Below are positions 44,360-54,382 of a stretch of 64,000 bases of DNA, piece after piece. The notes under the pieces were generated by a model. That model saw only the letters and a program-made list of their open reading frames with translations, had not been told where the DNA came from and made no database searches. Made by a program: the position numbers and the translations under genes. This DNA comes from Alphaproteobacteria bacterium (GTDB lineage: Bacteria > Pseudomonadota > Alphaproteobacteria > Paracaedibacterales > VGCI01), in contig JAIESE010000023.1 of assembly GCA_019746225.1 (NCBI GenBank), positions 9,117-73,116 on the forward strand, written 5' to 3'. Each line of letters begins with the position of its first letter. Positions within the stretch are counted from its first letter, which is position 1.

Positions 44360-47300
44360 TTATTTATAAGCATTCATTAGAGTTTCTATCTGTTGTTGGG
44401 TTTGCGCGGATCGTTTGTCTACCTCTTGGAGGTATAGCTTTACCTCAACATCCCGCAATTTTTGAGTAAGGAATGCATCATTTTCCTGCTTTAGTTCTGC
44501 ATCGGTTTTAACTGTGTAAATTGGATCCATACCAATGATCATTCGAGTTCCATTGAGCACTGCATTTGTGTCATTTTTAACGTCAGCTCCTACCGAATCA
44601 AAGTAAGCTGATACACGGGGTTCCACGGTTGGGAATGTGTCATTGAATTTTTCCACACCGAGCCTAAACAATTGGCTAGGCACAGTCAAAACAGTCTTTA
44701 GAGCTCTGCCCTCAATCATATTTCTCGCCTCAATGGTGGAAATCAGGTACTGGTTTGCATCGTGCTCATCAATGGCTCTTTGTCTTTCTTCAAGTTTATT
44801 GATTATCTTTCTATCGCTATAGTCTGGAATAAACCCTGCTGCAAAATCTAAACCCGTAACTGTTAAAGCTACAGGCAAGCTAGCGGCCATTGCTATCCCC
44901 GTCGTAACACCTCCATAAACAACAGCACCAACACCCGTATTAATTGTGGCCTTTGCGAAAGAGTCAGGGAAATCATGGCCATGCCCCCAATGCTGAACGG
45001 CCGCGTCTATCCCGAAGCCAACAAGAGGAAGAGCTTTGAGCCCCGTTTTCCAACCAGAGCTGCCGACAGGTGCTTGTTCCCACACACCCGATATAGGATT
45101 CACTTTCATATCAATGGTGATTGGGGACTTATAGCCTAGACTTTTTGGTCCTGTTGAACTCAAGACTTCCACATGGGGGTTCGAGAACGGGCCCTTATAT
45201 TGAGGAATCAATGCGTTTCCAGTCCCAGAGCTTAGGTTTCCATAGTTTGAATACCTCAGCGGATAGGTCCTTAGAACCAGTGCGTTTCCGGCTCCAGAGT
45301 TAGAATAGATCACTGGATAAGACTCAGGAATTAATGCATTTCCGGTTCCTATGGTATAGGCATTACTGCCTTGAGGAAGAACAAAGGACTTTCCCCCAAC
45401 CAAATCATGCCCCGTTGATGGTCCTGATGACCCGAATTCCCAAAGAGTTGATTTGTTTAAGGGACCTCTGCTGCCATTTGGAGTTTGAGTTTCAAAATAT
45501 TCTAGTGCTTCTACTGTCCTCGGGCACAAAGTTTTCCCGATTCCTGCATTTTCTAATCTCAACAGCTCTGTGTTGGTAAGGAGTGCTGGGATTTCTGAGG
45601 CTAACTCCATCTCAGCCTGCATTGTGGCAACATATTGCCCCCTATTCCCCTTGTTTATCAAACCACTATTTTGAAAGTTAATAATATTCGTACATAAGGG
45701 TGATCCCTTTAGGATCGCATTTTCAGCACTCATTGCAAGAGGTGAAGGAAGCCCACTCGCGTTGAGATTGCGATGGAAATACCCCCAGGTTTCATGAAAC
45801 ATGATGTGCTCTTCTACGGATCGAGGCTGAAACGACGAGCTCGTTATACCCCTTGCCTGCATATCTTGAGAAAAGCTATTCAGGAGAAGTCCCATATTTT
45901 GATATGTCTGCCCAGGATTCCCAGGAACAAAACCAGGAATCAGTGATTGTCCACCAGACATCAGGTCTAAGTACCAATGATAGGCTTCGTGACCTAAAAC
46001 GGAATGGACTGGATAGTTAGGATGATTTGAGAGTCCGGCAATGAGGATCCCTTTTTGTCCATTATTGCCTAAGGGCACATGAGACCCCAAGACGCCCTTT
46101 GGAGTATGACCCGAATTATAAAAGAAAGCAGAAAGACGGGGGTCATTCAAGGCCACTCTTCCTCTTTGAGCATACACTGAGGGGTGGTCACTCAAACTCT
46201 TATAGGTATTTTGGACTGTCGACAACAAACTTGGATCTTGGACATAGATTTTTGTACCAGAAATGATATGGGAGAACGAAGCACCACCAACATTGAGGGG
46301 GGTTCCCATGGAATTGAGCATGGGAACCATTCCCGCCAACAAAGCAGAACCGCCTCCCATGATGAATGGGGACTGGTCAAAAGGGCTGGTAGGAGCTTGG
46401 GGGACTTGGGGCTGAGATGAACCACTCCCCCTTGCGGAATCACCATTCTGATTCGCGGATGTTGGATGTTCCGATAACAAAGACTCAGTTCGATGGGGTG
46501 TGTTTTGGAAAGTGACGTCCCCAAAGCCAGAATAAGCAAACGATCCGGGAACGGGTGATGGGAAAGGGCCAACCATGGGTTGATAGGGAACAGGTGTGGA
46601 TGCTACAACCTCTGATGTTACGGGCTGAGGCGTGGGTGTAAGTGCGTCCCAAACATCGCGCGCTCCATCCACAATTTTGTCGACAACTTTGCCACTCACT
46701 TCAGCGACATCGTGTGCAAATTCCTTGACAGTATCCATGGTTTTTGAGGCGCCATCGGCAATCTTTACACCAAGCTCTCCTGCATCTTTTCCAAATTCAT
46801 CCCAAGCCTCCGGATTAACACCGGTCACAATAGGAGTCGTTATATTGATCCCCTTATCGGTGTTCCGATAAGTTGCCGTACCCACGAAATCAAATAACTG
46901 GAGAGGTGCTTTTGGATCCTTCGGCGCATCCGGATTTTTCAAGGCAATCGATGCACTGACCTCATGGCCATTATTGGAAACACCAACGGTAGCTGTACCA
47001 TAGTACTGGGTATCCGAACCCATCTTCTCGAAATTTCCACTATAGCCTACGGTATAGCCTCTATTCCGGTACTCTTCTGGGAGACCTTTAGAATGAACAG
47101 GCCCGATGTTTGCACCGTTATCGCTCTTCAGATAAATCTTCGCGCCTCTTAAATGAGCGGATCCAATACTGAAATCCTCTCCGGCCTCGTCAATAAAGAG
47201 TCCAGCTGTATGGGTCGCTTCACGAGATTTTTTCTTACTGAAATAACCACTGAAACTCCCTTTGTAATCGATTGAAAAGCCCATGCTCGTCGTTTTGCTG

Positions 47301-54382: not shown

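Follow-up and report, generated by a model that had tools for sequence, protein, structure and literature searches.

How does a giant protein with the layout of filamentous haemagglutinin (FHA) and of the contact-dependent toxin CdiA leave its cell when the usual transporter for such proteins is missing, and against what might it be directed? By definition, type Vb (two-partner) secretion pairs a two-partner secretion (TPS) domain with a TpsB protein. A gene that raises this question lies on the minus strand of a 64-kb stretch of DNA, from here on the window, from an alphaproteobacterium of the order Paracaedibacterales (assembly GCA_019746225.1, contig JAIESE010000023.1, positions 9,117 to 73,116). 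Residue numbers and module coordinates are those of the giant protein (P0001) throughout, and positions are those of the window.

44360..54382 (stop included), minus strand: giant gene encoding P0001, 3340 amino acids (aa), 356 kDa, pI 6.0, one uninterrupted open reading frame (ORF)

The answer that we favour, and consider probable, is that the giant protein is a TPS-less, TpsB-independent and host-directed divergent offshoot of the FHA/CdiA (TpsA) superfamily. What carries this answer is the remote kinship of its shaft and core with such proteins, the absence of the two-partner pathway from sensitive searches, a C-terminal module that is conserved and not polymorphic, and an upstream partner gene that encodes a leucine-rich repeat (LRR) protein.

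That the gene is real has been confirmed. Near-identical copies are found in at least 20 public metagenome runs from sediment and drinking water, and contigs of four independent runs, when aligned on the giant-gene region, are free of indels and differ by hardly any substitutions, the contig breaks being confined to both ends of an internal tandem duplication of ~247 aa. As independent metagenome assemblies reproduce the ORF without indels, it is no assembly artefact.

The whole giant protein has no match in Pfam, NCBIfam, PADLOC or PDB sequences. In word-indexed homology searches the queries P0001 and P0005 returned themselves and fragments only, the same kind of search with an alignment of 19 sequences gave no match, probably as its first 500 columns make poor words, and a search of the genome contigs with P0001 gave none either. 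Relatives were found with a HMMER family profile, built from P0001 residues 1831-2900 and the homologue in a second genome (G025), which was scanned against 1.84 billion cluster representatives and matched 42 proteins, mostly of 1300-3300 aa, 26 of them with E <= 1e-30. Judged by these profile matches, the giant gene is not an orphan, it is a member of a rare and so far unannotated family with some 40 relatives. An earlier reading of the window, made from the sequence alone and here called the sequence-only reading, had treated the protein singly and overlooked the family, the conserved C-terminal module and the LRR partner. The modules described below were mapped by conservation across an alignment of 19 full-length family members.

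Kinship with FHA and CdiA and the missing export pathway

Upstream of the C-terminal module the following features, all on the minus strand, can be recognised.

54308..54382, minus strand: Sec-type signal peptide, residues 1-25, MFKKFVTYLTLISFINSQFLPVVLA, followed by Cys26, with a lipobox-like VLAC
52463..54304, minus strand: N-terminal beta-solenoid domain, residues 27-640 (AlphaFold2 model and conservation)
residues 641-720, minus strand: Lys/Glu-rich insert (19-member conservation map)
51023..52222, minus strand: M module, conserved, residues 721-1120 (19-member conservation map)
49649..51109, minus strand: tandem duplication of ~247 aa, residues 1092-1329 and 1339-1578 (self-comparison)
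46703..48985, minus strand: conserved family core, residues 1800-2560 (19-member conservation map and profile search)
47042..47695, minus strand: FHA-2-like part of the core, residues ~2230-2447 (transitive hhalign link)
46331..46702, minus strand: Pro-rich linker, poorly conserved, residues 2561-2684 (composition and conservation map)

For the N-terminal domain AlphaFold2, run with a 15-sequence alignment, predicts an all-beta solenoid with a predicted local distance difference test (pLDDT) of 93.9 and a predicted template modelling (pTM) score of 0.83, and TpsA proteins (HxuA, EtpA, HMW1) account for four of the seven best PDB matches when this model is searched with Foldseek. The profile of the same domain found no TPS domain and no match of any kind among PDB sequences, and the domain carries a conserved motif that is specific to the family, H.F.L..LP.L.SL....GGS. 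With the same profile and hhalign, residues 318-438 of P0001 align with a CdiA-like protein of 1998 aa encoded elsewhere in the same genome, with a probability of 91.5% (E 8.5e-7). This second protein lies outside the window, on contig C76 (C76:53984-59980, plus strand), and has DUF637 (E 3e-15), Fil_haemagg_2 and a divergent TPS region with an NPKG motif that scores 25.8 bits with PF05860, which is under the cut-off; upstream of its gene are a signal-peptide protein of 867 aa without a Pfam match and a Gly-rich ORF of 268 aa that overlaps the gene for that protein.

The M module is marked by the motif EINT..N.N.LGR..SL.INALL..QSNNYTSNS and has a Gly-rich hydrophobic stretch at residues 866-905. 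The duplication, with copies up to 90% identical, forms part of a variable stalk (residues 1120-1800) that is poorly conserved among relatives.

A third line of evidence for the link to TpsA-type proteins, independent of the solenoid model and of the C76 alignment, comes from the core. Its profile has no match in PDB, and with hhalign residues 1971-2447 of P0001 align with residues 1455-1992 of a distant relative, P0039, at a probability of 96.6% (E 5.9e-10). P0039 carries PF13332 (Fil_haemagg_2) at residues 1762-1905 (E 1.5e-13), within the stretch aligned to P0001, and homology of a transitive kind, from the core through P0039 to Fil_haemagg_2, thus speaks for the putative FHA-2-like region. 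Sequence profiles and models taken together indicate that the FHA/CdiA kinship of the giant family is real but very remote. P0039 and two further distant relatives, P0040 and P0041 (2400-3250 aa), share both the M-module motif, which is present three times in P0041, and the FHA-2-like core, and have different C-termini.

The basic and hydrophobic N-terminus, with the n-, h- and c-region pattern of a signal peptide, is common to 17 of the 19 members and is often almost identical among them (MFKKF[IV]SYLTLICF.NS.C...A). The sequence-only reading had remarked on the lipobox-like VLA-C at the end of the signal and had offered lipid anchoring as an explanation. The observation is borne out, with VVLAC of P0001 fitting the PROSITE lipobox pattern. 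The explanation does not extend to the family, for a Cys follows the signal peptide in P0001 only, one of 19 members, and in none of the 18 relatives, which have ordinary AxA-type cleavage sites. Lipid anchoring is thus no family trait, and for P0001 itself the lipobox pattern suggests that it may occur.

Neither half of the two-partner pathway could be found, as the sequence-only reading had supposed when it saw no NPNG-type TPS motif and no adjacent CdiB/TpsB. The giant protein has no NPNG and no NPNL/NPNGI motif, and PF05860 (TPS) does not match it, nor does a six-frame search of the genome at E <= 10 return the giant gene. This is no problem of sensitivity, because canonical TpsA proteins of two genomes that carry the giant family, G336 and G257, score 164 and 149 bits with PF05860. 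These TpsA proteins are encoded on other contigs, each immediately after its own TpsB, and Pfam has no match for the member of the giant family in G336. ShlB/TpsB (PF03865) is found neither in the genome of the window (G000), a metagenome-assembled genome (MAG) of 2.38 Mb in 76 contigs that is 97% complete, nor in G025, which is 99% complete. The search for TpsB/Omp85 paralogues that had been proposed returned, for G000, BamA and TamA as the only Omp85 proteins (PF01103), with TamB behind TamA, and the weak matches to PF08479 fall on BamA and TamA only. A cryptic TPS domain with its cognate cdiB and cdiI elsewhere, which would make this an ordinary contact-dependent inhibition (CDI) system, did not emerge from the TPS and ShlB searches of this genome.

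The claim that there is no VENN motif has to be corrected, as a literal VENN is present at residues 1075-1078. It was considered as a pretoxin junction and rejected, being unconserved in relatives and in the wrong position, far from the C-terminus.

An immunity gene would be expected directly behind a CdiA-type toxin gene in a CDI system, and here the neighbour on that side is convergent.

43483-44037, convergent with the giant gene: secB (PF02556, E 4e-41)

The gap of 322 bp between the giant gene and secB had been described as having no ORF of 60 aa or more, and this holds, with no minus-strand ORF longer than 45 aa. Four complete loci of the family were compared (the window, G025, G336 and a metagenome contig, L011), and in the first three of these the giant gene is followed by no co-directional and no immunity-like gene; in G336 its downstream neighbour is a convergent alaS. 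On L011 (contig Ga0182030_10017211), the one locus of the four with a co-directional gene on that side, a gene for an LRR protein of 472 aa (LRR_4 / LRR_14) is found 30 bp past the giant gene (L011:11938-13356, plus strand), and LRR genes therefore flank the giant gene on both sides there.

The C-terminal module and the upstream partner

The distal end of the giant protein, behind the linker, consists of two conserved domains that are separated by an insert.

45488..46330, minus strand: zincin-like domain, residues 2685-2965 (motif conservation and AlphaFold2 model)
45977-45991, minus strand: HEAYH, residues 2798-2802 (HExxH motif)
45593-45595, minus strand: candidate third ligand E2930, invariant, 128 residues downstream of HExxH
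45059..45487, minus strand: insert with GNAL/YP repeats, residues 2966-3108, specific to P0001 and absent from aligned relatives
44363..45058, minus strand: helical C-terminal domain, residues 3109-3340 (conservation and AlphaFold2)
44825-44938, minus strand: hydrophobic helical hairpin, residues 3149-3186 (hydrophobicity)

H2798, E2799, H2802 and E2930 are invariant in the 14 relatives, of 19 aligned, that have the module, and the AlphaFold2 model (pLDDT ~90) places a three-stranded sheet ahead of the HExxH helix, as in zincins. On motif and model a putative zincin metallopeptidase-like domain is thus proposed for the tip of the protein. The likeness to gluzincin-type toxin domains lies in the HExxH helix behind a small sheet, the invariant Glu 128 residues further on and the position at the distal end of a giant protein.

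The helical C-terminal domain is conserved in relatives, even in members without the zincin domain, and is predicted to be all helical around the hairpin (pLDDT 85-90). The insert between the two domains is predicted to be disordered (pLDDT <50), and its GNAL/YP repeats were rejected as a functional feature of the family, the insert being found in P0001 only. Taken as a whole the C-terminal module is, by the alignment, conserved (14 of 19 aligned relatives) and not polymorphic. The Ser/Thr-rich region, the Pro-rich linker and the HExxH-bearing C-terminus are all present as the sequence-only reading had described them.

Directly upstream of the giant gene is a second gene that had escaped attention.

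54407..57163, minus strand: partner gene (P0002), 918 aa, ending 24 bp upstream of the giant gene

The layout of P0002 is a signal peptide, a novel Cys-containing N-domain of ~450 aa, an LRR domain of the ribonuclease-inhibitor (RNI) type and a C-terminal hydrophobic segment. P0002 itself has no match in Pfam, NCBIfam, PADLOC or PDB phmmer searches, and it is the profile of the partner family that matches ribonuclease-inhibitor and NLR-type LRRs in PDB (E 1e-8 to 1e-5), in the C-terminal half. A homologue of the partner lies directly upstream of the giant gene in all four complete loci, with E-values of 2e-5 in G025, 2e-33 in L011 and 1e-7 in G336, and the pairing is obligatory in these loci. 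The possibility that the partner is a cryptic TpsB was rejected, the hhalign probability being 0.06%. Some 1 kb upstream of the pair, G336 has a gene of the Bax inhibitor-1 family (PF01027, E 2e-65; L019:3641-4366, plus strand). The partner resembles the eukaryote-like, RNI-type LRR effectors of amoeba symbionts, as its C-terminal half matches RNI/NLR-type LRRs, and differs from them in being fused to the N-domain and the hydrophobic C-terminal segment and in being strictly linked to the giant gene.

The comparison with CdiA and TpsA can now be drawn. Alike are the giant size, the Sec signal, the beta-helical shaft, an internal region with a putative, transitive kinship to FHA-2 (Fil_haemagg_2), the linker followed by a C-terminal effector-like domain, and a partner gene that occupies, immediately upstream, the place of cdiB. 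The giant protein differs in lacking the TPS domain and its NPNL/NPNGI motifs, with no TpsB in the genome, in having an RNI-type LRR protein and not an Omp85 barrel as its partner, and in lacking a pretoxin (PT)-VENN junction, with a conserved C-terminal module and no immunity gene; it also has the M module and the C-terminal helical hairpin domain as extra parts.

Distribution and genomic surroundings

The family is present in none of six genomes of the same genus, in two of 62 of the order and in three of 400 others sampled in the class, these last three all of 1.7-1.9 Mb. The sole relative within the order is a protein of 2909 aa from a MAG labelled Candidatus Paracaedibacteraceae. In G025 the giant gene is flanked downstream by a convergent IS6-family transposase. 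It is apparent that the giant gene is accessory, patchy across genomes and sporadic in small-genome, endosymbiont-type Alphaproteobacteria. The Paracaedibacterales are intracellular, protist-associated Alphaproteobacteria (PMC11909080).

Within the window four consecutive ORFs without a Pfam match (258, 470, 655 and 153 aa; 57779-63166, minus strand) lie upstream of the partner gene, and the giant gene therefore terminates a block of orphan genes. At the other end of the window (1549-6939, minus strand) is a protein of 1796 aa with nonapeptide repeats of the RTX calcium-binding type (PF00353, E 3e-45), which suggest a type I secretion substrate within the same window.

Competing explanations and the proposed role

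A number of other explanations can be offered for the giant protein, and the one that survives best, although we think it improbable, is that of a soluble AB-type toxin, with the hairpin as translocation module and the zincin-like domain as enzyme, either secreted with the help of a secretin or of TamAB or set free by lysis or in vesicles. The genome does have two secretins as well as TamA and TamB, and there is in principle a likeness between translocation domains and the C-terminal helical bundle with its buried hydrophobic hairpin. Set against this, GspL of the type II secretion system was not found in the genome, one of the secretins belongs to a Tad pilus cluster, and the fold search gave no significant match to a translocation domain. 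Classical type II export was rejected on the first two of these grounds. It should be added that an AB-type toxin overlaps the explanation favoured here and does not exclude it. Of the two secretins (C64:5845-7689 and C55:5771-7471) one is in a Tad/Cpa-like pilus cluster and the other, an orphan, bears a lipoprotein-like signal.

There is somewhat slighter probability still in a lipid-anchored surface adhesin or filament, in which Cys26 would be acylated, the protein tethered to the outer membrane and its function mainly attachment. The lipobox of P0001 would fit such a protein, and adhesins typically combine a solenoid shaft and a repeat stalk. This is countered by the AxA-type sites of the other members, and adhesion alone would leave the distal HExxH...E domain and the hydrophobic hairpin unexplained.

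We give little credit to a third suggestion, that the protein is a substrate of a type VI secretion system (T6SS) or of another Sec-independent machine, its hydrophobic N-terminus not being a cleaved signal peptide. In its favour, the genome encodes TssC (E 1.6e-131), the T6SS is the conserved secretion system of Holosporineae (PMC11909080), and the distant relatives P0039-P0041 have no signal peptide. It is difficult to reconcile with the n/h/c-region pattern kept in 17 of 19 members and with Pfam searches that found no PAAR, VgrG, Rhs or MIX-type feature at the locus or in the protein. A beta-solenoid of 356 kDa also far exceeds known T6SS cargo.

Least probable of all is an ordinary CDI system, with the giant protein as a CdiA whose TPS domain is cryptic and whose CdiB and CdiI are encoded in another part of the genome or fall in an assembly gap, for which the remote kinship with Fil_haemagg_2 and with a CdiA-like protein, the TpsA proteins that head the fold list of the N-domain, the incomplete MAG and the C76 gene, a real CdiA-like gene in the same genome that is likewise without a detectable TpsB, can all be cited, and which founders on a TPS profile that scores well on TpsA proteins of family-bearing genomes and not on the giant protein, on the lack of ShlB in two family-bearing genomes, on a C-terminal module that is conserved in most members and is not polymorphic behind a VENN-type junction, on the lack of an immunity-like ORF in three of the four loci and on a conserved neighbour that is an LRR protein and not a barrel.

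The reading of the giant protein as a TPS-less, host-directed relative of FHA and CdiA has its own difficulties, which should be set out together. The FHA/CdiA layout that had been claimed is upheld by the solenoid model and the transitive link, and is qualified by the remoteness of the kinship and by a Pfam match that is indirect: the check for Fil_haemagg_2 gave no direct match of PF13332 to the giant gene in a whole-genome search, the link being made through P0039. FhaB, HMW1, EtpA and HxuA share the right-handed beta-solenoid N-terminus and provide the best fold matches, none of them significant (best E 0.058, TM-scores 0.14-0.36), and, in contrast to the giant protein, they start with a TPS domain and depend on TpsB; to TPS domains the modelled N-domain is no more than weakly similar in fold. 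As for the tip, the zincin-like domain has no match in Pfam, including the peptidase and Tox-MPTase families, nor in PDB or with Foldseek (PDB and BFVD), and its assignment is thus one of motif and topology only; a PDB profile search of the whole C-terminal module gave no match, Foldseek of its model had no significant match (best E >1) and against PDB and BFVD returned noise (Mcl-1/Bcl-2, chemoreceptor and tape-measure helices, E > 0.03), and three relatives have HExxxH in place of HExxH. P0039-P0041 are without an N-terminal signal peptide, and modes of export may therefore differ in the wider family. With the genome in 76 contigs a transporter could sit in a gap, and the metagenomes in which the organism was found are from sediment and drinking water.

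On the explanation that we favour, a TpsA offshoot directed at a host, the giant protein would cross the inner membrane by Sec, reach the cell surface without TpsB and project as a filament. The FHA-2-like region, together with hydrophobic elements, would then bring the protease-like cargo into or across the target membrane, as in CdiA, and the target would be a eukaryotic (protist) host and not sibling bacteria. The LRR partner may be a co-secreted helper, acting as chaperone, tether or host-binding subunit. A cargo that is conserved and has no need of an immunity gene is what would be expected if the target were a eukaryotic host. A eukaryotic target, which the sequence-only reading had also suggested, is plausible and is favoured by the lifestyle of the order, the eukaryote-type LRRs of the partner, the conserved cargo and the missing immunity gene.

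It is tempting to go further and to propose a new mode of export and delivery, in which FHA/CdiA-like filaments arrive at the bacterial surface without Omp85/TpsB by way of the N-terminal motif and M module, the LRR partner, or both, and in which the FHA-2 conduit has been repurposed to deliver a novel zincin and a membrane-inserting helical domain into the eukaryotic host cell. This we regard as unlikely, if not negligibly so.

If the favoured explanation is right, a branch of the superfamily has lost the TPS domain and TpsB and acquired a fixed LRR partner, with its signal peptide, shaft and FHA-2-like region retained, and the question is raised of how a beta-solenoid of this size crosses the outer membrane without the usual transporter. 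Four of the parts have no annotated relative and would each found a new family, namely the M module, the zincin-like and the helical hairpin domains of the giant protein, and the N-domain of its partner. In protist symbionts, the family shows how the delivery architecture of CdiA may have shifted from bacterial competitors to eukaryotic hosts.

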